Source: a virus
DNA length: 64,000 bases
Reading direction: 5' to 3' (one strand)
Virus record (IMG/VR): IMGVR_UViG_3300023174_000064
Span: 32,001-96,000 of that record
A model generated the notes under the pieces. The model was not told where the DNA came from. It was given only the letters and a program-made list of their open reading frames with translations, and made no database searches. Of the stretch, positions 6,656-64,000 are shown piece after piece (the stretch's first letter is position 1; the number at the start of each line of letters is the position of its first letter). The position numbers and the translations under genes were made by a program.

Positions 6656-8365
6656 TCATAAACTTAAAGTATCAACAAAAACTAAACCACCCAAACCAGC
6701 ACCAACTATTGGTCCCGTAGGAATATAAACTTTAACATCTTCTGTTGTAATAAACGGACTGGATATTAAATTATACACAAAAGGAGCAGTATTAGTAGGG
6801 TTGGTTTGTGATATTAAAGTATTTCCTGCGTATACAGACATAGTTTGGTTCCATGAAGGATAATCAAGGGTATCACCAATCAAAACACGAACAGATTCTA
6901 CTAAAACTCTTTGACCATACGAAGAGAATGTGTGTGTTGCTCCAGATAAACCTGGAGCATTTATAAATCCATTTGCATTTTTTGTATTTTTATTTCTATC
7001 TAAACCGCCCATTCCTCCAACATAACGACCACCAGTCTGATATTCTCCACGTAAATAAATATTTTCTATGCCTTTACAATTTTGAAATATTACAGGAGGC
7101 CATTGATAATAACTTTGAGATCCAGTGACCCATTGAATATTTGCACTGGGAGCCGAAGCCAAATTCTTACAAATCATTCCGCAATTATTATAATTTCCTA
7201 ATGCGTTTTGAGCTTTAATTTTAATTTTAGCTTGTTGATTTGGTGTTTCTCCCCATTGACCTCCATCCAATTCTACAATATAATTATCTCCTCGTAAATC
7301 AAAAGGATATACATCAGATTTTGATTCCCCACCTGCTATTCCACAGTTAACAAACTTTACGTAAGCTCCACCAGTTAATTCTATAACTTTACTGGTTCCA
7401 GCAAGGTTTCCTTTAGGTTCGTATTCCCATTTAGTATTAGTAACTAAATATTGGGCAACTGCACCAACAGAATCATTAGATATTTTAAGGAAAGTTCCTG
7501 GCATAATTACTGTACCGGAATCTACGTGTAAATACTCATAACCTTTAATATCAAAAGCAGCATAAGTAACTCCGTACCAAGAACAATCCACGAATCGATT
7601 GACTAAAGCTTGCGTATTTCTAGACCAAACAACAGTGTTAGCACCATTAAAATAAGATCCGGAAACAACATTAGTGTCTTCATTTATATCACAAGTATAC
7701 TTAAGAATAGTATTAAAACCATAAGTACTTATTCTATTAATGTATAATCGTCTTCCACCACCACCACCATTTAAAGTTATACAATTTCTTTGTGTGTTGG
7801 TATTACCACTTAAATCTTGAAATGCCAAGTCATGAAATTCTAAAGTGTCGTAAGGACCTGCAAAAAATACTGTGCTATAATTAGATTTTGTGGTGGTTAT
7901 AACAGAAACATCAGAACCATCACCAGCAAATTTCACTCCAAGAGCAGACGCTAAATTTACTGAGCAAGTAATTCCAGTAATTCCTGTGGTATTACATGTA
8001 TTTAATGCTGTTGGTAAATTTAATTCTCGATTTAATAAATATTTACCACGCGGAATATAAATAGTTCCCGTTCTTGCTGGAACAGATGGAGACGCAGAAC
8101 ATATACCAGTAGGAACTGTAAATCTTAAAAAATCATATGCGTTTTGAAATGCTAAACTGTCATCAGTAACACCATCACCAACAGCACCAAAATCTCTAAC
8201 ATTGCAAAAATCACGTAATTTATTTTCTACTGTTCTATTTACTCCATTTGTGGAAAAAGTATTACCAAATCCGTAAGTATAACCAATACTACTAATTATT
8301 TGATTGGTTTTATCAAACCAAGTTTCAAACGTATCTGTTCCGGTTAATCCTGTTATTCTTGGCAT
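6656..8365 (-). CDS. beta-helix tailspike / depolymerase-like protein
   Basis: RTVENKLRDFCNVRDFGAVGDGVTDDSLAFQNA...IYIPRGKY, pectate_lyase_3-type entry to a right-handed beta-helix; N-terminal DTF..W..KTN module. Confidence 0.85.
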   Translation of the reverse strand: MPRITGLTGTDTFETWFDKTNQIISSIGYTYGFGNTFSTNGVNRTVENKLRDFCNVRDFGAVGDGVTDDSLAFQNAYDFLRFTVPTGICSASPSVPARTGTIYIPRGKYLLNRELNLPTALNTCNTTGITGITCSVNLASALGVKFAGDGSDVSVITTTKSNYSTVFFAGPYDTLEFHDLAFQDLSGNTNTQRNCITLNGGGGGRRLYINRISTYGFNTILKYTCDINEDTNVVSGSYFNGANTVVWSRNTQALVNRFVDCSWYGVTYAAFDIKGYEYLHVDSGTVIMPGTFLKISNDSVGAVAQYLVTNTKWEYEPKGNLAGTSKVIELTGGAYVKFVNCGIAGGESKSDVYPFDLRGDNYIVELDGGQWGETPNQQAKIKIKAQNALGNYNNCGMICKNLASAPSANIQWVTGSQSYYQWPPVIFQNCKGIENIYLRGEYQTGGRYVGGMGGLDRNKNTKNANGFINAPGLSGATHTFSSYGQRVLVESVRVLIGDTLDYPSWNQTMSVYAGNTLISQTNPTNTAPFVYNLISSPFITTEDVKVYIPTGPIVGAGLGGLVFVDTLSL

Positions 8366-8385: not shown

Positions 8386-9912
8386 TTAATCAATTCTATA
8401 ATTGTTTATTTTATTTGCGGAAGCAGCAAGTGAGTATCCAGAAATAGGACTTGCTCCATAAAAAATACTAGAACTGTAGAGAATTCCTGCTGTTGTTCCT
8501 CCAGTATTCACATTATCAATCAATGAAAAATTATTCATTGTGGCAGAAAAATTATCAGCAGACCACAACCAACCAAATGTTTTACCAGGAGCGTCTGTAA
8601 GTTGTTCTACCATATTACCTGTAAATTGGTAGAAAGTAGGAGCAGTATCAAGAGCAGGCGATCTGTGATCGTGTGTAGTCAAATTTCCAAAAAACATACA
8701 CGGACCTATTATTTTATTATTTGTGGCTGTAAAAAATAAAGGATTAGCAGCGCCAGTATAACCACGAGACGCACCAACAAAAACTTGAAGAACTCCAGCA
8801 GATTTTGGAACAGAATTTATAACTTGATTTCCGGATACAGTATAAGAACGAGTTCTTTGAATTTTCGCTCCATTATAAAAATTAATACAAGCAAAACCAC
8901 CTACGTCTGCCGATAATCCGCTTTGAGCAAATGGAGTTAAACCAGTACTGGTTGGCTCATAGTAAAAATTATTATTGTATATCTGACCTACTACAAATTG
9001 AGCGTTTACTTCTGCTGGTTGAGCTATTGGTAGAATATTTCTATAAAATGTATTATTTGAAATTATACTTCGATCATTTTGAATTTTAATGGATCGACCT
9101 TTACAGTTTCTGAAATGATTATTAGTTATTGTTGCAGCACTTTCATTAAATGTAATGCCGTTAATATCATTCGGAAGATAACCAAATACAGATAAACAAT
9201 CACAATCTGAATTACTATTTGATTGTGTCCAACCAGAAGAAACGTTTTCAAAATAACAACCAGAAACGTTTACATTTTTAGGATATGCGTTTCCTGAGCG
9301 TTGTATAGCAACTCCCACTGTTCCAGCAGAGTTTTGAGTTCCTGTTCCGTTTGCACGTGTATGATTTATTACCTGAGAATTTGTTAGATTTACGTATTTA
9401 CTACCACTAATAAATAGACCACCACCCCCAAGTCCTACCCCAAGATCGCCTCCTTGATATGAATTTAGGAACGCACAACGATCAATTTCTATTGTTCCCG
9501 TCATTCCTAGTGAATCTTCTATAGCAAGGCATGCAAGAGCTTTATTATTGCCGTCAAATTTAATTCCTTGCATTTTAACATCATACCCTTGATTTGAAAT
9601 AAACCACATATGTTGTGCTGTGGTTCCGCAAACTATTCGAGCGTCTTCGCCAATAATATGCAAAGTACGATTCATAGTTCTTTCTATTTGGCGATTAAAG
9701 CGCGGACCAGTTCCTGTTAACAGATAATCCCCTTTAGGAAAATACAAAACTGAATTAGTAATACCATTTGCGGCATTAAGAGCAGCACTGATACCTAATG
9801 TATCGTCTATTGTTCCGTTTCCTACTGCGCCGTAATCACGGACAGAAACTAATCTTGGATTTGTAAAGGTTATTCTTGTGTCTGTTCCGGTTAATTTTAT
9901 TGATGGTTCCAT
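8386..9912 (-). CDS. beta-helix tailspike / depolymerase-like protein
   Basis: VSVRDYGAVGNGTIDDT..I.AAL...LYFPKGDY followed by Asn-ladder repeats (ITNNHF, ISNNTF, VSGNQV). Confidence 0.85.
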   Translation of the reverse strand: MEPSIKLTGTDTRITFTNPRLVSVRDYGAVGNGTIDDTLGISAALNAANGITNSVLYFPKGDYLLTGTGPRFNRQIERTMNRTLHIIGEDARIVCGTTAQHMWFISNQGYDVKMQGIKFDGNNKALACLAIEDSLGMTGTIEIDRCAFLNSYQGGDLGVGLGGGGLFISGSKYVNLTNSQVINHTRANGTGTQNSAGTVGVAIQRSGNAYPKNVNVSGCYFENVSSGWTQSNSNSDCDCLSVFGYLPNDINGITFNESAATITNNHFRNCKGRSIKIQNDRSIISNNTFYRNILPIAQPAEVNAQFVVGQIYNNNFYYEPTSTGLTPFAQSGLSADVGGFACINFYNGAKIQRTRSYTVSGNQVINSVPKSAGVLQVFVGASRGYTGAANPLFFTATNNKIIGPCMFFGNLTTHDHRSPALDTAPTFYQFTGNMVEQLTDAPGKTFGWLWSADNFSATMNNFSLIDNVNTGGTTAGILYSSSIFYGASPISGYSLAASANKINNYRID

Positions 9913-9943: not shown

Positions 9944-12900
9944 TTATGGTGGGCATGAAGATATTGTGATGTTGGGATTAGTTATTCCTCGTAAATATTT
10001 AAAATCATTTATTGTAATTTTACCAAAAGAAATTCCAGGAATTAATTTTATATCGTAATCCCAAGACGGGAACACGTAGGTCGGAACATTAAATCTGGTA
10101 GTACACCCAGTAGTTGATGCAAGAGTTGTGGTATTTCTTAAATTATAACTTGCGTAATTTTGTATTACCGGTATTTCTGTTATAACAGTATATGATGGAG
10201 GAGTATCTGTGGTAGAAGTATCCCAAATGCCACAAGTCAATCCTCCTAGCGCATAAGTTATTCCTGTTGTATTATTTATAGCTTGAATAATTTGATTATT
10301 AAATGTGGTTCTCCAAATATATTTGAAGTTGCGTAGTTTAGCTCCTGTAGTAACGTAAAGATCTCTGTATGAGATTGCTGTTGTTGATGAGCTACTACTT
10401 TGAGAAACTTTTCCGCCTAATAGAGTATTCAAGCTTGCAACATGAGAATTTAAAGTAATTCCGTGTGCTGTGCGTTCAGCTGCAGTAAGTCCACCATCAC
10501 CACCATTCCACAGATAAAATATTTCAGCTCCCAATAAGAATGTGTGTGTTATATTCTCATAATAATATCTGCGATCTAAATTATATTTTGAATCTGTATA
10601 ACCCAAACCGTTTATCCAAGGTTGTAGTGGTGTGGATGGAGAACTGCGTTTGCAACTTCTAGTTTCTTGTTGGTCAACAACAAATGCAGTCCAAGCAGAT
10701 GACGGTAATTGTTGTCCACTATCATCTAATACCAATCGGGTTGGATCTGAATCTGATATTGACCAAGACGTTAATATTCCACCCAATTCTCCGTACAGAT
10801 AAGGAGAAGCTGCTGTTCCAAATATGGCACTAAACGGTTGTTGATGTCCATTTAAATCTGGTGGTGGATTATTTGTAGTAATTACACAATCGTAATTACT
10901 GCCTCGTAGACCTGGTATTTTTGTCTTTGTATAATTCCATAATGCTTGATTTAAACCAGCAACTCCAAGAGAACGTAAAGCATTATTCCAAGCTAAATAT
11001 GCAGTATTTCCACTACCGGCTCCCTGTAATACTGCATCTAAATTCACACCTTGTAATTGAGTACTTAATGCTGTAATTCCGTGTTTAGATTGAGTAAATC
11101 TGGCATCTGATGTGATTGCTCTTAGTACTTCTGCATCTGTTGTTTTAATACTATTTTTTAGACCAGGTATACTCCAATTAGAGAATGAACCAACAGCATC
11201 TTCATTATCAAATGCCCAATAATCAAATGTTACTCCATTACTTACTAGTCCGTCTATCCACGGATTCCACTCTGCTTGTACTTTAGTTATTGCGTCATCA
11301 AACCAAGGACTGTAAGTTAATCCCAGACCAGCTGTATCAAAAGTAGAACCCAAGAAAGCTTTTTGGAAGTGGTAACGATAAGTTCCAAGTACACGTTTAC
11401 CTGGTGCAATAGTCTTAAACTTGTCTGCAATAGCCGTAAACCCGGTAATTGTTTGTTTTGCAAGCAGAGATTCATTCACAGAGAATGGTGCACCCGGATC
11501 GATTTGAGTAATACCATTTACCCACACTATAGGTATTATATGAGACAATGATGTACTTCCAATCCAAGGTTCCCAATACGCAACATATACTGCAGGTGTT
11601 GTAGCTACTGCAATTGCGCTTAGTGTTGTGTTTAATTTTAAATTGTTTTCATCATAGTAAGAACCACCTGATGTTCCTAACATCACATTAATTGCGTAAT
11701 GGCGACTTGGTGGTATTGCTCCTACCCCAGGAACAGCCGTATAAGCGTATTTAAACGAATTATTTACTGTTAATTCTCGTTCTAGCCGAATTGGTTGATT
11801 GCCGGTCAACGTCATTAATACATCAACACCACTATAAGTTACACCAACACTGTTTGTATTATATGGAATTGGTTGTGACCAAGCAACATTCCAAGTTTTA
11901 TTGTTTGATCCAGATATTGGATATAAAGTAAGGCCAGTGTCTGTTCCTTCTTTTGGTAATGGGAACGTGTTTGCAGCACTGGCTCCGGTGTAACCAACGT
12001 GGAATCGATAATATACTCTGCTGGCCGGTCCTGTTGCGTACGGACCTGTTGCAGACCATGAAGCACCAGGATAAATTGGATTGTACGCACTGATACCAAC
12101 AACGTCTTCAATTTGAATGGTTGCAGATCCTTCAGAATACGACCAAGTAATACCTCGTGTGCATTTTCCTATTTGATATTGATACGGCTCAAACTGATAA
12201 GTGAGTCCTTCTGGTGCAATATATGTTGGTACTAAACTACTGCCGTAAGACAGATAATTTGCAGTATCACCACCTCTTGCTGTAGAATTTGGTGGACCTC
12301 CCCATCCGTACAAGTAACCATCACTTGGACCAACCCAACCTGGTACGGCTTCTGCCCATCCATATTGTCGAGCAGTTAATCCTCTAGTATTATAAGTTGG
12401 GAGCAGATCAATAAATGCGTAACCACCAGTACTATTAAAAGTGACACCAGACCATGGGCAGGTTTGAGGCACCGCATAATCTTTCCTCTCACCTAGCTGC
12501 ATTTTATTGTGACCTTTTGCTCTCACTGTTTCGGTTACAAAATATTCCGCAGTGGTTGTGTTTGAACCAGAACCTTCGCTTATTGCTCTAGGTTCTCCTG
12601 CTTCTAATAGTAGTACGGCATCGCCCAGATAAGCAGAAATGTGACCACTATCCGAATTTGTTTTTTCATCTCGACCATTAACACCTTTACCCCAAATACC
12701 AAATATTAACGGTTTATTAAAATTATCGTTCGTTTGTGGAGTTCCGTCTGAATTCCAACTTGTATTAGTTAAAAAATTAGAGTGAAAACGTGGTATAACA
12801 TGTTCGGACTTCCACACAAAACAATTTTCTCCAGCAAAATAACCCCAAGGCGGAAGTACTTTACTGTTTATTTGGCCTCGGTCCACATATTTTTTCATTT

Positions 12901-16075: not shown

Positions 16076-16327
16076 TTAAATAGGATTTGGTGAAATATCA
16101 CTTTCAATCTCTTCATCTTTTGGTTTGGTTGGTTGAACTGGTGGTACTAATGGTGGACCGAAATAATATTCTGGCTGTTGTGTTTGTAATAATGGAAAAT
16201 TTATTTGAGCAGATATAATTAAAGTTTTGTTTATATTTTTAATGTACATAAAGTACACATCATTTGCTAAAAATTGTTTCAGCAAAACTTTAATATTTTT
16301 TTCAGATTGTTTGACCTTCAGCTTCAT
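16076..16327 (-). CDS. hypothetical protein
   Basis: 83 aa ORF packed between structural genes, SD AGGA. Confidence 0.5.
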   Translation of the reverse strand: MKLKVKQSEKNIKVLLKQFLANDVYFMYIKNINKTLIISAQINFPLLQTQQPEYYFGPPLVPPVQPTKPKDEEIESDISPNPI

Positions 16328-16339
16328 AGTTGTTCCTAA

Positions 16340-16747
16340 TTATTCAGGATTTACTTGAAGTCTGCCTTCTAATAATTTTTCAGAATACGTTACACCAATT
16401 AAAAGTTTTAAATCATAAAATAATTTTCCAACAGGTAATGAATTAGTAGTTTTTTTATCCAGTTCTATCAGAATACCACCATCTAAAGATGTAGTATTGT
16501 AATTAACATTAAGCCGAATACCACCGTATTCAGCTCCAGTACCAGGAGAACTGGCCCCAGTATACCCATATGTCACGCCATTTGTGGTGGCAAAAACTAA
16601 TGGGAAATCGGCGGTTTTATATCTTTCTATTTTAAGTTCAGCCGTATAGGAAGAAAGGTCTACACCAACATCAGAATCGGAAAGATACTGTATCCAAGCA
16701 TTTAAATTACAATTTTTATTTACATCAAGATCGTATTGTGCTGCCAT
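16340..16747 (-). CDS. virion structural beta-sandwich adaptor-like protein
   Basis: YDL.V, DLSSYTA...I, L..GK..YDL, LLEG.L.V.P pattern common in T4-like structural regions. Confidence 0.65.
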   Translation of the reverse strand: MAAQYDLDVNKNCNLNAWIQYLSDSDVGVDLSSYTAELKIERYKTADFPLVFATTNGVTYGYTGASSPGTGAEYGGIRLNVNYNTTSLDGGILIELDKKTTNSLPVGKLFYDLKLLIGVTYSEKLLEGRLQVNPE

Positions 16748-16761
16748 ACAATATATATCAT

Positions 16762-18006
16762 TTATCTGCTGACAGTTTTTCTTTCTTTAAACTTGGATTT
16801 AACAGCGTGTGCTGGAAAAAGAGCAGGTTTATGATCTTTTCTTTCGCTTTGCTTTTTGGCTTGTTCGTCCATCTGCCTAATAATTTCCATTTGATTAGTG
16901 TCTTCAAAGAACTTTAAGTACTGATTTAAATTGTTTTGTACCCGATCGATATCATTCTCTGGAAGACGATTTTCCATCAAAAGTTTCTTACAAGCAGCAT
17001 AACCCATATGGGCCTTTCCTGCGTAAAAAGCAGTCGAACCAATTTCGTCTAAAATTCCATATTTATAAACGTCCTCAGACACGAATAGGATATCTTCGGC
17101 TGGATATGGGATATCCATAGCCATCTTGGCGTATAAGAAACCTAGACGGGGATGACCCATCAGTCTGTAAATTTTAGCGATTTGGTGTAAAGGTTCAGCA
17201 CGAATTGGTCTGAGTTCCCAGGCTTCTAAAAATGCTTGTTGAATTTCTATCCATGGTTTATTTAAGAGACCACGGCACATACCAATACGATATGCTGCGT
17301 AATATTGTTCCTCTTCCCAACCACCCATCATTATTCGTTTTACGTAAGCTTGTTCTGCTTTTTCCCATTGTTGAGAATCAAAATAACTTTGAGCAAGATA
17401 GAACTGATAACGAATGTTATCTGGCTCGTCTACCAGAGCCTTTTCTAGCATTTCTGCGTCTCTTTTGTATTTTTCTACAGGTTCGATACCTACGTTACGG
17501 GCTCCCATTGTTCTAGCAACAATTCCGTATTGACCTTCAATTTTTGCAATTTTTGGTTGTTGGTTTTCAGTTGTTGGATATTCGTGAAGAATACCAACAT
17601 ACTTCCATCCGCGACCTGTTCGGAAGATTTGAGTTCTCCACCACGAGAAATCTTGACGACGGAACTGTAAAGCAAATGCGTCAAGTTCTTCTGAAATATT
17701 TGTTGGAAATTTAAATGTACCTTGAATAAAATCGTCAGCGTCAATCATCCACGCCCAATCAGCTTTACCATCACATAACTTTAAAGCTTCTGATCGATTA
17801 TGACCGAACGAAACCCACGGTTGTTCGTGTAGCTCTCCTGGAATACCCTTCTCTGCAAAATAAGACCGAATAAGATCTTGAGTGCCATCTGTTGATCCAG
17901 TATCAACAATTACCCAATAATCAATATACTTATGGACAGAATCCAGACACTCTTTAATAATGTGAGTTTCATTCTTTACGATCATTGACAGACATAATTT
18001 AGGCAT
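16762..18006 (-). CDS. GT2 glycosyltransferase with TPR repeats
   Basis: LCLSMIVKNE, VDTGSTDGT, FGHNR, IDADD (DxD), LHE; C-terminal FYLAQSY.D, RP.RAEPL TPR helices. Confidence 0.9.
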   Translation of the reverse strand: MPKLCLSMIVKNETHIIKECLDSVHKYIDYWVIVDTGSTDGTQDLIRSYFAEKGIPGELHEQPWVSFGHNRSEALKLCDGKADWAWMIDADDFIQGTFKFPTNISEELDAFALQFRRQDFSWWRTQIFRTGRGWKYVGILHEYPTTENQQPKIAKIEGQYGIVARTMGARNVGIEPVEKYKRDAEMLEKALVDEPDNIRYQFYLAQSYFDSQQWEKAEQAYVKRIMMGGWEEEQYYAAYRIGMCRGLLNKPWIEIQQAFLEAWELRPIRAEPLHQIAKIYRLMGHPRLGFLYAKMAMDIPYPAEDILFVSEDVYKYGILDEIGSTAFYAGKAHMGYAACKKLLMENRLPENDIDRVQNNLNQYLKFFEDTNQMEIIRQMDEQAKKQSERKDHKPALFPAHAVKSKFKERKTVSR

Positions 18007-31847: not shown

Positions 31848-32252
31848 TTAAGAGTTTCCTATATGGTATTTAGGCACCAGTTGCCATTCTTTCTTTTCTT
31901 TATGGGGAATAATTTTTAGTTGAGCCAAAGAAATAATTGGTTCTTTGTACTCGTCTGGATCCACAGCTTCTACTAGTCCCCATTCTACCAGAAGCTTTAC
32001 AATCATGTTACGTCGGCCAAGATCGGTATCGTCTATATCTGTTTCTAGTCCGTCTAGATCAAGCATCTCTTTGAAATGCATGATGGCGTATCTGCCGCGT
32101 TTGTGAAGAATATGACAGCTTTGATATAGTTTTTTTTCTTTTTTGGATGACACTCCCATTCGGGTAAGAGTCTCCTTCACCTTGAGAAAATCGTCTTTAG
32201 ATTTTAATTTGATTTCAACTCCAAGGCCATCAAAAATATCTTCGTTTTCCAT
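31848..32252 (-). CDS. regA: translational repressor RegA
   Basis: DDFLKVKETLTRMG, LYQSCHILHK.GRY.I.HFKE, W.LVPKY.IG. Confidence 0.97.
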   Translation of the reverse strand: MENEDIFDGLGVEIKLKSKDDFLKVKETLTRMGVSSKKEKKLYQSCHILHKRGRYAIMHFKEMLDLDGLETDIDDTDLGRRNMIVKLLVEWGLVEAVDPDEYKEPIISLAQLKIIPHKEKKEWQLVPKYHIGNS

Positions 32253-50943: not shown

Positions 50944-52074
50944 TTAGCTAACCAAAACTTCTCCGGTAGCAGAATTAGTTACTCGTATTGTTATTGTCGA
51001 TACTGGATACACTAAATCAACAACCACATCTAATATTAGATTGCCCGCAGCTCGAACAGCTTGAGTATTATTTGATTCATCACATATTAAACTATAACTA
51101 GCAATACCATTATTTGCTAAAATACCATTCATTATAGGAGTAGCAGAATTTACTACTTGTAGACGTGTGATTGCATCGTTTATCTCAAACAAATACTGTT
51201 TTAGTGTTGTTGTTAATTGTTTTTTGATGTATAAAGCCAACATCATAGAATTTATTATACTTTGTGATGTACCAGATACCGGATATGAGGTTATATTACT
51301 TAAGAAGAAAGTTCCTTGTCCTGGTATTGAGTTTATTGGATTTACTCCACCAGCTGTAAAATAAGAGATATCACTATCTGAGAATTTTTGTGTCAGATAA
51401 AGAACATTTAAAATTCTACCATTCGTATAACCTGCAGGACTTATCCAAATATTATTACTTTCTGCTGTTCTGGCAAAACAACCAGCAACATCCGGACTCA
51501 TTCCACCATCATACACTGTAGCAACACCGGAATTAAGGTAAGTAAATTTTTTACGACCAGCAACGTAAGTGACGTATTTACTTAAAGTTTTTTGACCAAA
51601 ATCTGCCGTAAATCCGTCATAATTACTACTCATTGATAGAGTAGCAATATCTCTGTAATTACCAACAATAGCCATGCAGTCGGTTCTTGTTGTTGCTGCA
51701 TTTATTGCAGCACTCGAAGAAAAAGTATTACCACCATCAAAAATTACATCCAATTCTACTATATTTTTATTATGGAGAGGGCTGTTTGTTAATAAGTTCA
51801 CGTTGTAAAACGATCCAGTGGATCCGGTTCCACCAACAAAACAAGAACCACCGTATTGCAAATAATTCCAAACACCAAACCATTCTCCTTGCCAATCTCC
51901 AGTTGGTCCACTGGTGGCAAATGTAGAATTACTTAATCTGCCTAGCCAGTCATTTAAAGAAGAAACTGTCATTAAACCAGTTTCTTTTTCCGAAATTCCA
52001 TCAGAACCAGTTATACCAAATTTTGGTACAAGTCCTTTAAAAGAAACCATTCCAGCTTTTAGGTCTTGTGGCAT
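50944..52074 (-). CDS. gp18: tail sheath protein, short and divergent
   Basis: NYLQYG, R.DCMA, DVAG..ART, W.SPAG...G.I, VNP....PGQG, LFE.ND..TR, ICDESNNT; between gp17 and gp19. Confidence 0.85.
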   Translation of the reverse strand: MPQDLKAGMVSFKGLVPKFGITGSDGISEKETGLMTVSSLNDWLGRLSNSTFATSGPTGDWQGEWFGVWNYLQYGGSCFVGGTGSTGSFYNVNLLTNSPLHNKNIVELDVIFDGGNTFSSSAAINAATTRTDCMAIVGNYRDIATLSMSSNYDGFTADFGQKTLSKYVTYVAGRKKFTYLNSGVATVYDGGMSPDVAGCFARTAESNNIWISPAGYTNGRILNVLYLTQKFSDSDISYFTAGGVNPINSIPGQGTFFLSNITSYPVSGTSQSIINSMMLALYIKKQLTTTLKQYLFEINDAITRLQVVNSATPIMNGILANNGIASYSLICDESNNTQAVRAAGNLILDVVVDLVYPVSTITIRVTNSATGEVLVS

Positions 52075-57190: not shown

Positions 57191-60100
57191 TTATCCGGTC
57201 AAACCTACTGGTGTCAAAGTATAATAACCAGTGAATATTGCTGTTTGTCTTGTTTGTGGTAAAAGATACAAAATAGCATCATTTCCGTTAATATTACAAC
57301 CAAGGTCCCAAGTAAGACGGCTAGGATGTGCTGTAAGATTTATTGCTACTACGTAAGTTTGTCTATCAGTTCCGTCACTAGAAACTCCATCGTGAACAAT
57401 AAGATCTTTTCTACCAATATAGTATCCAGTTGGAATTGGTGCGCCCACAGGCTCCACCCCAATTCCACTTGGCCAAACACCTTGAGAGGTATTTTGATCA
57501 ATGATGTTTACTGTTGAAGTAACATCTATCATATTATATTGATTTTTATTAAATCTGGCTACTTCGGCACTTAAACCTGTTTTAGACACAATTTTAAATG
57601 CATTCATTATTACTCTATTGTTTTCGGTAATACCCATTACTCGACCAAAACTAAAAGTGCCTCCAGAAACAACAGATCCTGTAAATGTAGCACCGGATGC
57701 ACTTAAACCGGCAGCAAAAATTTGTTGAGCAGTAAATGTGTTTGTTACATTTGTTGCTGCACCGCTTGTTGATATGGTAACTGCGCCAGTTAAGCCGTTA
57801 ACAGAAGACACCAGATTTGTAAATGACTGTCCGTTTAGACTCATCGTTCCACTTAACGTGGCACCGGATGCACTTAAACCATTTGGAAGTTGTAATTGCC
57901 CGTAAATAGTGGCAGATTGTTGTAGTGTGGTACCTAATACCGCAGTATTAGAACCTAAACCAATAGCATTAGTACCAATTACTATTTCGTTAATTTGGCT
58001 ATTTGCAGAAGCACGAGTATTATAACCTATGAAAACACCACCTGTTACTGATGTTAATGAAGTTCCTGATCCGAAGTACCTACCAGCATCATATCCTATA
58101 CCAGTATTATTACTGCCTGTTATATTTGATCTAAGTGCCTGCGTACCAATTGCCACGTTACTGCTGCCTGATGTGTTTGATGTTAGAGTATTGAAACCAA
58201 CAGCGGTATTGTCTTGACCACCAACATTACTGCTCAAAGCACCACTACCAAAAGCAGAATTTTCAGTACCAGAAATGTTTGCTGTCAGTGCATTAAAACC
58301 AACACCAGTATTATCAGCACCGTTAGTGTTGACCAATAAAGATCCAGAACCAACAGCAACATTATGAGTTCCTGTGGTGTTTGCGTTTAAAGCCCCAGAA
58401 CCAAGAGCCGCATTTGAAGTAAGATTTCCAGCACCAATACCAACACTAGCACTATTAACAGTAATATCTTTAGTGAAAGCTACACCAGTAATGCCACTGG
58501 GAACCGACAGTAAACCACGTAGTGTGGTGGATGTTGTATCGGTATTACCTATAACTGTAGTGTTTGATCCGTTACCAATAGCATCATAACCTATTACTAT
58601 TTCATTTGTTTGATCATTTGCCCCAGGAGAACAGTCTGCACCTATAAAAATAGAAGCAGTACAGCCAGTATGGTCATCACCATCTGGTAAAAATGCTCCA
58701 GCAGCATATCCTACAGAAACATAACTGTAACCGTCCAGATAATATCCGGAGAAAGCTCCTATACTGGTATTCCATTTTTTATTGTTATTGGCTCCAACGC
58801 TAGTGCCTATGAAAACGTTGTCTTCTTGGCCCAATCCGGTGTTTAAACCAATTCCAATTGATTGTAACGGTCTCGATATTAAACCAGAACCACCGCTTTG
58901 AAATCCAATACCAACACAAGATTCTGGATATAATGCATCTGTGCCTGCTCTACAGCCTATAAAAGTACAATTCTGTGCCCCTGCGGCTTGGCGGCCTTGA
59001 CCGTATTGCGGGCCGTTTCCTCCCGCGTTATATCCTATAAAAACATTTTCTTCGCGAATAGCAGTACATCCGTTGAGTACCTCGTGACCTATTAATACGT
59101 TTCTAAATGGTTGGCCACCAGTAACATATTGAGAAGAAAATAATGGATCTAATATGTTGTCACCAATAACAATAGTATTCGATACGCCGTTTCCTGCAGT
59201 ACTACCATTATCCGCAAAAATACGAGATCCAATACCAATATTATTCCCGTAAGTATACCTGTAAAACTGAGTCGTTCCTGAGACAACCTCTCTGGTTACA
59301 CCAAATCGTGCAATTGTTGTATACTGAGCAGTAAGCCCTACATGTTGGGCACCTAGTATTGGAAGATCAGGTTGTGTTGATGGTATACCAGCAATATTCG
59401 GATAAAACTGGTGATATAATTTTATATTTCCCGCATTTGTTATTCCACCATAACCTATACTACTGATAAGTGTTTCACCTCTAATTACTGTGGAATATAT
59501 AAACCATCCACATACTCCAAGTACAGCCTGGTAACCAGAATACGTAATTCCTTTTTCTGTTGTATAATTACCAAAAATTTGTAATTTTGTTGTTAAAGTT
59601 GTACCAATCACCGCAGTATTGGAACCTAAACCTACCGCATCAGCACCAATTACAATTTCATTGTTTGATAATGAACCAGTATTTACTCGGGTATTATAAC
59701 CTAATAGTACGGATTTGCTTGTGGTTGAGGAATTTTTTCCTGCCTCTGTACCAACAGCAGTATTGTAATTACCGCTTACCATATTGGTCAATGCTTGATA
59801 ACCAACACCCAGATTTCCTGTTGCTGTATTAGCTGCCAGCGCAGCAGAACCCACTGCAGTATTGTAATTACCTGATGAGTTTGTTGATAAGCTGTTATAA
59901 CCTACTGCAGTATTATCATTTCCGTTATTGTTTTGTAGTAAAGAGGAAGCACCAATTCCAGTGTTGTCTTCACCATTTCCATTACTGACTAATGCATTAG
60001 AACCTAATGCAGTATTGAAATTACCTGATGTGTTGTTAAATAAGCTGTTATAACCTACTGCAGTATTATCGTTTCCGTCTGTATTACTGCTTAATACATC

Positions 60101-61045
60101 GACGCCAACAGCTGTGGATTGATTTGGATTTTTACCACGACCAACAGTAATAGTATTAACACGTATATCTGCACCAAACGTGGCACCAGCCGCACTTATA
60201 CCAGCATTAAATGTTTGTACTGGAGTAAACACATTCGCCACTGATGTAGTAACACCAGTAACAGCACCAGTTAATCCGTTAAATGTAGCCACACCAGTTA
60301 AATTACCGGTTAATCCGTTTAAACTACTCACAACATTAGTTACTGTTGGTATACTTGCAGTTAAAGATCCAGTAATGGTAACATTTCCGTTAAAAACAGA
60401 AGCAGCATTAACTGTTAAATTACCGTTTAATGTAGCATTTCCATTTAATGTGGCACCAGCCGCACTTATACCAGCATTAAATGTTTGTACTGGAGTAAAC
60501 ACATTCGCCACTGATGTAGTAACACCAGTAACAGCACCAGTTAATCCGTTGAATGAAGCCACACCACTAACACTATTTGGATTAAATCCTGGAGCAATTA
60601 AATTTCCAGTTATTACGACATTACCATTAAATGTGGCACCACTAGCAGAAATACCTGCTGTGTATTCTTGTAGCGTGGTAAAAATCTGTGTGGTGTCTAA
60701 TCTTGCAATATTTTCTATTGCTCCAAACGATCCGTTTACCGACAAAACGCCAGCATTTGTTATTATGGGATTAGTAGTACCAGTGATGGTTATACCAGAA
60801 TTACCGGATCTAATTCCTGTGACACCAGAAACAGCACCAGTTAAACCATTAAAAGAACTTACGTAATTACTAAAAGTAACAACTCCAGTTAATCCATTAA
60901 ATGCCGCAACATAATCTCCACTAATACCAGTTGAGAGAGACCCACCACATATTCCAGCATTAACAGCTGCAATTAAACTGTTTGTTGTATTGAATAGTGT
61001 TTGAAAAGTATCGTTGCCAGTTAATGAAGTTATTGGTGTTGACAT
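57191..61045 (-). CDS. long tail fibre / adhesin-like protein
   Basis: V.SFNGLTGAV repeats, YadA-head-like NTA.G..AL..N..G repeats, NEIVIG..A.G.GSNT.V.G junction motif three times, C-terminal LIVHDG domain. Confidence 0.85.
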   Translation of the reverse strand: MSTPITSLTGNDTFQTLFNTTNSLIAAVNAGICGGSLSTGISGDYVAAFNGLTGVVTFSNYVSSFNGLTGAVSGVTGIRSGNSGITITGTTNPIITNAGVLSVNGSFGAIENIARLDTTQIFTTLQEYTAGISASGATFNGNVVITGNLIAPGFNPNSVSGVASFNGLTGAVTGVTTSVANVFTPVQTFNAGISAAGATLNGNATLNGNLTVNAASVFNGNVTITGSLTASIPTVTNVVSSLNGLTGNLTGVATFNGLTGAVTGVTTSVANVFTPVQTFNAGISAAGATFGADIRVNTITVGRGKNPNQSTAVGVDVLSSNTDGNDNTAVGYNSLFNNTSGNFNTALGSNALVSNGNGEDNTGIGASSLLQNNNGNDNTAVGYNSLSTNSSGNYNTAVGSAALAANTATGNLGVGYQALTNMVSGNYNTAVGTEAGKNSSTTSKSVLLGYNTRVNTGSLSNNEIVIGADAVGLGSNTAVIGTTLTTKLQIFGNYTTEKGITYSGYQAVLGVCGWFIYSTVIRGETLISSIGYGGITNAGNIKLYHQFYPNIAGIPSTQPDLPILGAQHVGLTAQYTTIARFGVTREVVSGTTQFYRYTYGNNIGIGSRIFADNGSTAGNGVSNTIVIGDNILDPLFSSQYVTGGQPFRNVLIGHEVLNGCTAIREENVFIGYNAGGNGPQYGQGRQAAGAQNCTFIGCRAGTDALYPESCVGIGFQSGGSGLISRPLQSIGIGLNTGLGQEDNVFIGTSVGANNNKKWNTSIGAFSGYYLDGYSYVSVGYAAGAFLPDGDDHTGCTASIFIGADCSPGANDQTNEIVIGYDAIGNGSNTTVIGNTDTTSTTLRGLLSVPSGITGVAFTKDITVNSASVGIGAGNLTSNAALGSGALNANTTGTHNVAVGSGSLLVNTNGADNTGVGFNALTANISGTENSAFGSGALSSNVGGQDNTAVGFNTLTSNTSGSSNVAIGTQALRSNITGSNNTGIGYDAGRYFGSGTSLTSVTGGVFIGYNTRASANSQINEIVIGTNAIGLGSNTAVLGTTLQQSATIYGQLQLPNGLSASGATLSGTMSLNGQSFTNLVSSVNGLTGAVTISTSGAATNVTNTFTAQQIFAAGLSASGATFTGSVVSGGTFSFGRVMGITENNRVIMNAFKIVSKTGLSAEVARFNKNQYNMIDVTSTVNIIDQNTSQGVWPSGIGVEPVGAPIPTGYYIGRKDLIVHDGVSSDGTDRQTYVVAINLTAHPSRLTWDLGCNINGNDAILYLLPQTRQTAIFTGYYTLTPVGLTG
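60180..60550. repeat. perfect 101-bp direct repeat (offset 270 bp)
   Basis: 60180-60280 identical to 60450-60550. Confidence 0.9.
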
Positions 61046-61063: not shown

Positions 61064-61753
61064 TTAAATAATACTTCTGATTGTTAATCCGTTTCGGAAA
61101 CCAATATAACCAGTCGTTCCCGTTCTGACTGCAGTAAATATAGGAACCATGTATTCTCCAGTTCCTGCAGTTCTACCAAAACCACTGATTTGTAATTTTA
61201 ATCTGTCTGCACCACAAGGTCCGTTTACAAAATTCATATTATGGGAATCTTGTAGTGTTCTGTCTTGTGTTGTGCCTGCTGTATCGTTTGTTGTGCAACT
61301 AATAGTTACTGGTTTGATCACCATACCGTAATCTCCAGTACTTCCTGTTGCTCCAGTAAATCCACTCATAATAGTTCTTGCAGTATTATTATAAACCCAA
61401 ACACCAAGACCGCCATTAGTGTTATTGTGTTTGATGAGATACCATCCAGCACTTCCTGTTGCAGTAATAGAAGTAGAACCACTAGAAGAAATCAGAGAAG
61501 AAGTATAAGGCGTACATCCATCCCAAGGAACGGTTCCAGCTGTCCATCCCTGACTTTGTAAACCACTATTTAATGTATTTTGTACATAAAATATTTCTTG
61601 AATTTCATTTAATTCAGATGCTTGTAGTGGATATCCTGCTTTAAATGCAACAGCATAATAATTTTTTGAAGCGTTTATTTGAGATTCTACTCTGCTTCTA
61701 AAAGGATTTTGGTTGAACGGAAATCCGCCTGTAAATGGTGTTGGTATTGGCAT
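61064..61753 (-). CDS. miniature DUF4815/VrlC-like virion protein
   Basis: YY.V.FK.G.PLQA.EL.E.Q and GADRLK motifs in only 229 aa. Confidence 0.7.
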   Translation of the reverse strand: MPIPTPFTGGFPFNQNPFRSRVESQINASKNYYAVAFKAGYPLQASELNEIQEIFYVQNTLNSGLQSQGWTAGTVPWDGCTPYTSSLISSSGSTSITATGSAGWYLIKHNNTNGGLGVWVYNNTARTIMSGFTGATGSTGDYGMVIKPVTISCTTNDTAGTTQDRTLQDSHNMNFVNGPCGADRLKLQISGFGRTAGTGEYMVPIFTAVRTGTTGYIGFRNGLTIRSII

Positions 61754-61777: not shown

Positions 61778-62875
61778 TTATGTATCGCATGTAAATAATT
61801 CGTTTGGAAACGTATAACCGCTATTTGGTAGTAATTGTGCAAAATCTGATAATTTTATTACACCAAAACTAACACCAACAGGATATTGTGAAATTTCTAC
61901 ATCCCAAGTTGGAAAAATATAAGTTGGAGCAGCCAAACCGGAGATACAACCAAAAGTATAACCTATACTTTGTTTGGAACCTAAAGTATAACCAGTATAA
62001 TTTTTTATTTTTGGTATTTCGTATACGGTTATTAGTGATTGTGCATTGTATTCATTATTAAATATATCCGATCTGTAATTAAATAAATCACGTAATCCTG
62101 CTGGATGCATGATTGGTCTGACAACGCCAGTGTACTCTTGATCACTTAAATTTGCACAATTAATAACGTAAGAGTATTCTTGCCATACATCACCGTCTCC
62201 CATAACCGACCAATTTAATCTGCTTCCTGACAATTGAACATAGCTGGAAGAAACTTCAGCAGAATAATTGCCTAAAGGATTTAAATTATCTTGCATCCAA
62301 TCAAAATTACCACCATTTAATCTAAAAAGGTATCTTTTAGGATAAGAAATAGAAATATTTTCTACTGGAATATTAAAAACTGTGTTTATTAACAGTTTAA
62401 TACTTTCCTCTGATCCTTTCTTTGAGTATATGTTAGATTTTATATTTTTTATTAAATCAATAAGTCCAGTTTCACTGATAATTCCATTAGTTATGGATTG
62501 TTCCGGAATAGCATTCACATAAGAATTTGCAACATTTGTTAATAAACTGGTTGGTATATTTTCTAAATTTGTTAAATCTTCTAGACTGAAAAAATTAATG
62601 CCTGTAATATCATTACATTCGCAAGACAACCATTTATAATATTGTTCCGTTAAAGATATTAAAACAGAATTTGAATTGTTATTAGATATTCTTAACCAAT
62701 ACGGAAATAAATTTGCAATGTTTTGCGGATAATGACAAGTAACTCCAGCAGTTTGTGTTTTTACAAAAAATGAAGAAAGATTAGTGGAAGACGCATCAAA
62801 TTCACCACCACTCAAACCTAAAGTTGTTGGGTTTGTATTTAATTCGTAATTATTATTTTTAAAAATTAAAATCAT
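61778..62875 (-). CDS. gp7: baseplate wedge protein gp7-like
   Basis: YYKWL, LIKNIK...Y..KGSEESIKLL, YP, QEYSYVI, HPAG; follows gp6. Confidence 0.75.
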   Translation of the reverse strand: MILIFKNNNYELNTNPTTLGLSGGEFDASSTNLSSFFVKTQTAGVTCHYPQNIANLFPYWLRISNNNSNSVLISLTEQYYKWLSCECNDITGINFFSLEDLTNLENIPTSLLTNVANSYVNAIPEQSITNGIISETGLIDLIKNIKSNIYSKKGSEESIKLLINTVFNIPVENISISYPKRYLFRLNGGNFDWMQDNLNPLGNYSAEVSSSYVQLSGSRLNWSVMGDGDVWQEYSYVINCANLSDQEYTGVVRPIMHPAGLRDLFNYRSDIFNNEYNAQSLITVYEIPKIKNYTGYTLGSKQSIGYTFGCISGLAAPTYIFPTWDVEISQYPVGVSFGVIKLSDFAQLLPNSGYTFPNELFTCDT

Positions 62876-62879
62876 TTAA

Positions 62880-64000
62880 TTATGTGGATTGTGTTATATT
62901 TGTATTAAATGATGCAGTCAATAAAAATTCATCCTTTATTACGGTAGAGTCTGGATATCGTGGATATGCTGTCATGTCTATAGATTTATTTTTTGCTAAC
63001 ACGTTTTCGCTTATTACAGCATATCCATCAGAATAATTTACATACCCTAAATAACCAAAACCACCAATTAAAGATGAATTTGCATCCACAGAAACAAGTT
63101 TTCCTTCTGTTGCTGTTCCGGTAGAATCAAATGTAATAGGTGTATCTGCCAAATAAATTGTTTGACTGCTATACGATAATCCTGTTGTTTTTATTGCATT
63201 TCCGTATGCTGCTGTGCTTCCAGGTCTTAATTGATTTTTAAAGTTTACTAATTTTTGGCCATCGGAACCACATACTCCTAAAACAAAATTTAAAGAATTT
63301 ATTCCTATACTTTTTATATTTGTAAAATTTGCGTCCGCCACAGTTTTCATATCTGCCACTCTAATATTATTATTAAATATTCTAGGACTATTATAATAAT
63401 TTTGTAATATACCAGCCAAACCAGTCACCGATGTTGAATTAGTTGTTACTACATCTAACGTAATGTTAGCTGTTATTGGTTGTGCCTGAACATATTCAGG
63501 TAAAGTTCCTATTATTGATTTTGCCTTTAAGAATGCTATAGAATTTTTAACTTGTAAAGATCCTGCAGTAATTCCTGTGTTTGCAAAAGAAACAAATATT
63601 CTACCATATGCTGGAGGTGTTGCCGTATCTCCTCCCCATATATTTAATTGTTCTTTTTGGGTTATAGACGAAGGTAGTAAATTTGAAGATAACAAAAAGC
63701 TGTAATAATCTTCTTGTGTTACTGCTCTTTGATTAGCTGCAAACGATTTGGGAGCAGAATAACGAATTGCGTCTAGATTGGGAGAATCTGTTCCACCAGA
63801 AGTAGAAGTAGAACTTTTTATTGTTATACTTGCATTTTTTATAGAAGTAATACTGTTTGCTGCAGTTCCAGAAGAAACCAAATAAGAAACCTGAACAATG
63901 TCGGATTCGTTTATTGTCTTTCCTTCAGAAGTTGAATAACTACTCGCATTTGTTTTTCCAAATACTAGTTGAAATCCATCTACAATTCTTTCAACATAGA
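62880..64000 (-). CDS. gp6: baseplate wedge protein gp6, 3' part (start beyond right edge)
   Basis: Frame open to the window end (YVER...FG...V.YLVSSG..AN), IRYSAP..FAANQRAVT..DY, WGG....PP.YGRIFVS, G.VNY..G. Confidence 0.9.
   Translation of the reverse strand, partial: YVERIVDGFQLVFGKTNASSYSTSEGKTINESDIVQVSYLVSSGTAANSITSIKNASITIKSSTSTSGGTDSPNLDAIRYSAPKSFAANQRAVTQEDYYSFLLSSNLLPSSITQKEQLNIWGGDTATPPAYGRIFVSFANTGITAGSLQVKNSIAFLKAKSIIGTLPEYVQAQPITANITLDVVTTNSTSVTGLAGILQNYYNSPRIFNNNIRVADMKTVADANFTNIKSIGINSLNFVLGVCGSDGQKLVNFKNQLRPGSTAAYGNAIKTTGLSYSSQTIYLADTPITFDSTGTATEGKLVSVDANSSLIGGFGYLGYVNYSDGYAVISENVLAKNKSIDMTAYPRYPDSTVIKDEFLLTASFNTNITQST

Follow-up and report, generated by a model that had tools for sequence, protein, structure and literature searches.

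A C-terminal domain shared by a gp7-like baseplate wedge protein and a 2041-residue protein co-varies with anchored tailspike genes in uncultured T4-like phages

We analyzed a stretch of 64,000 nucleotides (here called the window), corresponding to positions 32,001 to 96,000 of the IMG/VR virus record IMGVR_UViG_3300023174_000064, in which two proteins encoded far apart end in copies of the same small domain, referred to below as the module. The genome is that of an uncultured T4-like myophage with clear Pfam matches for gp14 (neck), gp15, gp16, gp17 and gp18, and every gene of the window is on the minus strand. Module copy 1 (9944..10177) comprises residues 1965-2041, that is the last 77 residues, and the stop codon of a multidomain protein of 2041 amino acids (aa) (P0001, 9944..16069). 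Module copy 2 (61778..62020) comprises residues 286-365 and the stop codon of a 365-aa protein that resembles the baseplate wedge protein gp7 (P0002, 61778..62875). The modules start at E1965 (window position 10177) and E286 (window position 62020), their coding parts without the stop codons are located at 9947-10177 and 61781-62020, and the two copies are separated by 51.6 kb.

The resemblance had been noticed in a first-pass annotation, made from the sequence letters without database searches, which aligned the last ~78 aa of the giant protein with the last ~80 aa of gp7 at a distance of about 52 kb. Its coordinates were exact once the stop codon was counted in, the motifs it quoted were present as written, and the pairwise alignment that it proposed as a check was significant: residues 1959-2033 of P0001 were matched by BLASTP to residues 280-358 of P0002 with 33 identities over 79 positions (42%, 60.1 bits, E 2e-13). 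The similarity extends beyond this pair, since gp7-like modules encoded on dozens of related viral contigs are matched by that of P0001 (identity 37-53%, E-values down to 4e-20). A module profile identified residues 1965-2039 of P0001 with an E-value of 1.9e-29. Exactly two copies were recovered from the window in a six-frame tblastn search with both modules as queries, the next best match having an E-value of 0.059, and the whole virus record (146,037 bp) contains these two copies and no more.

On the basis of synteny and weak homology, we accept P0002 as a minimal gp7-like wedge protein, of the class of T4 gp7 and P2 gpI. Its gene is located directly downstream of a gene for a gp6-like wedge protein, of which the C-terminal part is encoded at 62880..64000 (phrog_219, baseplate wedge subunit, E 7e-24) and which runs past the window, within the gene order gp48-like, gp53 fusion, two tail proteins, gp25, gp6, gp7-like, fibre genes, gp13, gp14 and gp15. 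P0002 matched the Pfam family Baseplate_wedge (PF23786) with an E-value of 0.0013 and 18.7 bits, which is below the curated cut-off of 27, and the match stops exactly where the module begins. The same weak match recurs in 11 of 35 relatives of P0002, with a best E-value of 4.1e-5. With hhalign, the gp7-like family was placed on residues 661-919 of T4 gp7 at an E-value of 0.046 and a probability of 1%, and the motifs YSxKGxExSxK and HPxG are common to the family and this T4 stretch. More distant relatives matched positions 715-758 of phrog_964, a baseplate wedge family of 1030 positions, through the same motif (E 3e-5). These distant relatives share with P0002 only residues about 38-265, and the module is therefore a clade-specific C-terminal addition.

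Like T4 gp7, P0002 is thus encoded after gp6 and shows weak similarity to T4 residues 661-919, but it is about one third of the size of the T4 protein (1032 aa) and is devoid of the N-terminal 660 residues. No similarity was detected between the module and the C-terminal 153 residues of T4 gp7. The first-pass annotation had reasoned from the contact between the gp7 C-terminus and gp10 in T4, a premise that does not transfer to this phage because the module has no similarity to the T4 gp7 tail. Homologs of gp8, gp9, gp10 and gp11 were not detected in this stretch. In a distant lineage (G002, L060:2911-7005; G007), the gp7 homolog is about 1364-1380 aa long, with the core near the N-terminus and a partial module-like stretch, so that in this group gp7 varies in size by extension at the C-terminus, in contrast to the N-terminal extension of T4 gp7.

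The 2041-aa protein consists of an N-terminal motif (residues 1-45), FN3-like repeats, a TIG domain (residues 325-406), a central region of ~1000 aa (about 420-1490), an extra domain of ~470 aa (residues 1491-1960, 10190..11599) and the module. Its homologs range from 1108 to 3013 aa and all have in common the N-terminal motif of ~45 residues and the central region, while the repeats and accessory domains vary across the family; the extra domain, for example, is missing in P0058, P0070 and P0004 and is N-terminal in P0127 and P0128. The protein had been described in the first-pass annotation as a large carbohydrate-active protein. Scores from a language-model atlas connect it to clusters of heparinase II/III, DUF4962 and alginate lyases (0.88) and to clusters resembling glycoside hydrolases (GH-like, 0.81-0.86), but the only Pfam domain identified was TIG, with no match to Hepar_II_III, DUF4962 or an alginate lyase model, and sequence and profile searches of the PDB with P0001 and the family profile matched the FN3 and TIG parts and nothing in the central region. 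The enzyme label is accordingly a lead only, taken from the language-model scores of 0.81-0.88.

A profile of 22 module sequences (A2) was searched against 1.84 billion representative sequences. In total, 74 proteins were matched at E <=1e-3, of which 36 at E <=1e-10; a few of the weakest matches with many short repeated hits (P0106, P0116, P0118) look like false positives. Most of the matched proteins are gp7-like proteins of ~365 aa with the module at the C-terminus, and the module is ~77-85 residues long. No Pfam family covers the module, as a Pfam scan of the 22 module sequences gave scattered chance matches only, and no match to the gp7-like protein or to the module was found in cultured-phage genomes. 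These 74 representative clusters in public data constitute a domain family that lacks annotation. Also, the module has been combined with other cargo, as the first-pass annotation had expected: a fragment with RCC1 repeats from a different sample (P0003) has at its end a module 77% identical to that of P0001, and several gp7-like proteins contain PKD domains or longer extensions after the module (P0047, P0050, P0054, P0069; L053).

The module contains invariant aromatic residues and a nearly invariant pair of cysteines, the conserved aromatic positions being Y8, Y11, W39, F51 and F59, and copy 2 is kept across the gp7-like family, where the invariant residues include C310 and C363. A model of the isolated module, predicted by AlphaFold2 (AF2) from 49 sequences, consists of short helices and coil, with a predicted local distance difference test (pLDDT) score of 71 and a predicted template modeling (pTM) score of 0.58. 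This model had no match in the PDB (Foldseek), in 48,161 chains (VIA-align, no Z >=2) or in BFVD. For the full-length gp7-like protein, AF2 gave a poor model (pLDDT 52), which was kept out of the fold search. Searches of the PDB by sequence and profile with the gp7-like alignment gave only marginal matches to legume lectins (E about 0.008), which were judged to be due to chance.

Conserved aromatic residues and a cysteine pair are also what might be expected of a small disulfide-stabilized domain that is located at the periphery of the baseplate, has affinity for glycans or the cell surface and has been appended to polysaccharide-active proteins in the manner of a carbohydrate-binding module (CBM). 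The occurrence of the module next to enzyme-like, RCC1 and PKD partners at variable positions, as is seen for binding modules, and the lyase-like and GH-like leads for its cargo are consistent with such a function. We consider it unlikely all the same, since the module resembles no CBM in Pfam and no solved fold, its predicted structure is not a beta-sandwich, and the receptor-binding parts are usually the most variable, whereas the module is present in nearly every gp7-like protein of the clade at 37-53% identity.

Phylogenetic analysis of the module places all copies outside gp7-like proteins in one group (93/78 support), which is nested inside the diversity of the gp7 modules. Such a topology is consistent with one capture event from a gp7 gene, after which the module was inherited, relocated and secondarily transferred. 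The graft onto the giant protein is old and has been inherited within the giant family rather than acquired recently. The suggestion of the first-pass annotation that the module is a discrete portable unit also found on the gp7-like wedge protein was thus borne out, and its interpretation is supported in part: the module is a real, portable domain derived from gp7.

Less compatible with the data is the other half of that suggestion, namely that the module was grafted onto the giant protein as a terminal plug for attachment. According to this explanation, the module of the giant protein binds the same baseplate-side partner as that of gp7 and thereby attaches a giant enzyme to the baseplate, with the free face of a trimeric fibre anchor or a 229-aa DUF4815-like protein (see below) as candidate partners. 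The sharing of the domain between the giant protein and gp7 is in line with a plug, and three equivalent faces would be available on a trimeric anchor, against one module per wedge from gp7. Moreover, the module is C-terminal in most members of the giant family (P0001, P0123, P0124, P0058, P0070 and P0131, and the fragments P0004, P0065 and P0071). In P0127 and P0129, however, it is internal, having been inserted cleanly after the last TIG domain and before the central domain, and it is missing from P0125, P0126, P0128 and P0130 even in an unfiltered hidden Markov model (HMM) search. The N-terminal motif of ~45 residues is kept in every member, with or without the module, including the four that have none. 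Phage fibres and spikes normally attach by their N-termini, which also argues against a C-terminal plug, and we regard this mode of attachment as improbable. An LTG-like stretch in the N-terminus of P0001 was likewise considered as a fibre anchor and rejected, as the relatives conserve a different motif there.

Such an anchor is found in other proteins of the window. An N-terminal motif of ~30 residues, LTGxDTFxTWF...TN (alignment A5), is common to a 1284-aa fibre or spike protein (57191..61045, anchor profile E 1.4e-17), which is encoded two genes downstream of the gp7-like gene, and a 569-aa pectate-lyase-like tailspike (6656..8365, anchor at about 8270-8365, anchor profile E 8.8e-24), which also matches Pfam PF12708 and tail spike PHROGs. 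Related fibres and spikes carry the LTGxDTFxTWF anchor too. Immediately downstream of the gene for the 2041-aa protein, a second pectate-lyase-like tailspike of 508 aa (8386..9912, tail spike PHROGs) has a shortened anchor, about 12 anchor residues shorter than its L107 ortholog, in which the anchor is full; the shortened form is also seen in the close relative L113 and is therefore not an assembly error. Located between the gp7-like gene and the fibre gene is the gene for the 229-aa protein (61064..61753), which has a DUF4815-like N-terminus and of which the genome has a single copy. In all four relatives inspected (L043, L033, L018 and L022), the gene for the anchored fibre follows directly after it. 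A second DUF4815-like gene was sought near the giant gene, and none was found.

We compared the presence of the module with that of an anchored spike at 11 giant genes with readable context, all from related phages. An anchored pectate-lyase-like spike is encoded downstream in 8 of the 8 module-bearing loci, either immediately or after an ORF (open reading frame) of ~80 aa. In six of these loci the module is C-terminal (the window, P0001; L113, P0123; L107, P0058; L109, P0070; L116, P0131; and L104, with a fragmented homolog), and in two it is internal (L112, P0129; L115, P0127). The three loci in which the giant protein has no module (L110, P0128; L111, P0130; L114, P0126) are otherwise syntenic, but no anchored spike gene or motif was found in them within 13-20 kb. 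Among the module-less members, the spike gene is thus missing wherever the downstream genes could be read, which was the case for three of the four module-less members (P0125 could not be read). In the tree of the central domain, P0127, with both module and spike, is sister to P0128, with neither, at 99% support in the SH-aLRT (Shimodaira-Hasegawa-like approximate likelihood ratio test), and the starred branches of this tree force at least three changes of module state. In L104 (G003:12234-15434), the giant homolog is split over several short frames, with an intact anchored spike downstream, and may represent a decaying gene or a low-quality assembly.

The coupled gain and loss of the module and a separate spike gene is left unexplained if the module is a plug, and likewise if it binds glycans. 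The same coupling bears on a third explanation, that the module caps or stabilizes its own protein or the wedge ring, the copy in the giant protein being a by-product of recombination without any shared partner. The predicted folds of the gp7-like protein and the module are both short of high confidence and domain shuffling is rife at the giant locus, which would agree with such a structural role. We consider it very unlikely, given that the module is retained by giant-protein lineages that share just 40% identity in the central domain, that it has been re-placed as a clean and intact insertion, and that its changes are coupled to changes of the spike gene. All three alternatives account for the shared domain, but they leave unexplained why some members have no module, why it is internal in others and why it is coupled to a separate spike gene.

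The numbers of modules and anchors were also compared in 20 related records and were mostly in agreement. In 13 of these, there is one module and one anchored fibre, encoded 0.7-2.8 kb downstream of gp7. The genome studied here has two modules and two full anchors, and G003 has two modules and three anchors. G004 seemed discordant; its gp7-like protein has a diverged module-like C-terminus. In more distant phages with gp7-like proteins that are devoid of the module, the downstream fibres begin with a different N-terminus.

From the co-variation with the downstream tailspike gene, the polarity is probably the reverse of that suggested by the first-pass annotation, the module being a socket that recruits a spike. 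Support by analogy comes from the minimal baseplates of Vibrio phage XM1, cyanophage Pam3 and Anabaena phage A-1(L), in which a gp7-like protein provides, in its C-terminal part, the docking site for the N-terminal domains of trimeric fibres or spikes. In XM1, the C-terminal residues 201-242 of gp17 are embedded in the tailspike density (PMC10457771); in Pam3, two Cys-rich platforms of gp23 dock the N-terminal helical domains of the fibres (PMC9942802); and in A-1(L), the C-terminal loop of gp32 holds the shoulder of the long fibre (PMC10966104). As here, the gp7-like proteins of these phages are small and encoded after a gp6-like gene, and the Cys-rich platforms of Pam3 gp23 have a parallel in the conserved cysteine pair of the module. 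They differ in that no sequence or fold similarity to the module was found in the profile and fold searches of the PDB, and in that the docking region is here a discrete conserved domain that also occurs outside gp7, which is not reported for those phages in the papers cited.

Because the genomic co-variation can be combined with the docking of fibres on gp7-like C-terminal parts in these solved baseplates, we favor, at about even confidence, a duplicated fibre socket over a plug as the function of the module, with the giant-protein copy recruiting the downstream spike. The module on the gp7-like wedge protein would then serve as a docking platform for the N-terminal LTGxDTFxTWF anchor of a trimeric fibre or spike. 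A copy of this socket would have been captured once by the giant family of FN3, TIG and enzyme-like proteins. The giant protein itself would probably join the virion by its own conserved N-terminal motif, and its socket copy would recruit the pectate-lyase-like tailspike encoded just downstream. The outcome would be a branched receptor-binding apparatus, to which the giant protein adds an extra branch point for a spike.

Several observations weigh against the socket interpretation. We infer the stoichiometry, the presence of the giant protein in virions and the binding of the module to the anchor. The AF2 model of the module is of moderate quality and matches no known fold, so that the predicted structure speaks neither for nor against a socket. 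Conservation of the module does not clearly exceed that of the central domain of the giant family (47-51% vs. 40-57%). Furthermore, a fibre gene near gp7 is expected in any case, and hence only the pairing at the giant gene is informative, which rests on 11 loci from related phages. In G005 and G020, the gp7 module is followed by extra domains and there is no significant anchor match; G020 gave no match at all, and the best in G005 had an E-value of 0.0057 on a 48-aa frame. There are also two spikes in the window, one with a truncated anchor, for a single extra socket. Finally, the real partner of the gp7 module might be the 229-aa DUF4815-like protein, which occurs as a single copy.

The region upstream of the giant gene contains the gene for a 135-aa protein (16340..16747, phrog_1084, function not known), which is present at this position in every relative for which the upstream flank was read, together with a 414-aa glycosyltransferase with GT2 and TPR domains (16762-18006 in the window). 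Between the genes for the 135-aa and 2041-aa proteins we identified an 83-aa ORF at 16076-16327 on the minus strand, not included in the ORF list, with an MKLK...IK start as in the giant protein. An MKLK-type N-terminus is also found at the same locus in the relatives L107, L110 and L112-L116, in small ORFs of 80-100 aa and in a 274-aa Laminin_G_3 protein; the small ORF is only sometimes present between the two genes, and the 274-aa protein takes this place in L107. Possibly, the MKLK...IK N-terminus is another type of attachment tag, for which the conserved 135-aa protein might be the partner. Further upstream, the sugar-synthesis genes differ among the relatives (NeuB, DegT, methyltransferases). 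The T4 late-promoter motif TATAAATA is not enriched in the window (7 matches vs. 9.6 expected), and for this reason no meaning was attached to its copy at 10273-10280 within the giant gene.

Two further observations concern other tail genes. About 4.4-6.2 kb past the high end of the window (L003:4402-6246, minus strand), the N-terminal 80 aa of a gp53-like wedge protein are fused to an RCC1-repeat beta-propeller of ~500 aa, and a further RCC1 protein of 1342 aa is encoded at L003:11330-15358. The tail sheath homolog (50944-52074, minus strand) is just 376 aa long, which is unusually small for a T4-like phage, and scored below the Pfam cut-offs.

In kind, the system belongs with modular, branched receptor-binding machinery, resting here on an unannotated domain family. 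Branched tailspike complexes are established in the Ackermannviridae, where TSP1-4 of CBA120 are assembled through domains that resemble those of T4 gp10 (PMC8825819, PMC11414711). In both cases one receptor-binding protein would recruit further tailspikes into an apparatus of multiple specificities, as is known for the Ackermannviridae and proposed here. The branching domains of the Ackermannviridae are N-terminal and gp10-like, whereas here the candidate is a copy of a wedge C-terminal domain at a C-terminal or internal position in the giant protein. No Pfam or PHROG match to gp10-like assembly domains was obtained for the 2041-aa, 1284-aa, 569-aa or 508-aa proteins.

More broadly, and with confidence falling somewhat short of even, we propose that the module is an undescribed fold that serves a clade of uncultured T4-like phages as a transplantable socket, universal for trimeric fibres with the LTGxDTF anchor. 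These phages would gain and lose spikes by the co-transfer of a socket domain, inserted at any permissive site in a virion protein, and an anchored spike gene, which together would form a two-part plug-and-socket cassette for the evolution of host range. If correct, this would provide a rule at the sequence level, by which a wedge fibre socket is duplicated onto another virion protein along with a spike that has the matching anchor. It would explain why domains and genes are gained and lost together in the hypervariable fibre locus, and would make fibre placement predictable from sequence alone. A socket and anchor pair as compact as this one (about 80 and about 30 residues) might then also lend itself to the engineering of phage host range or to the display of cargo on baseplates.

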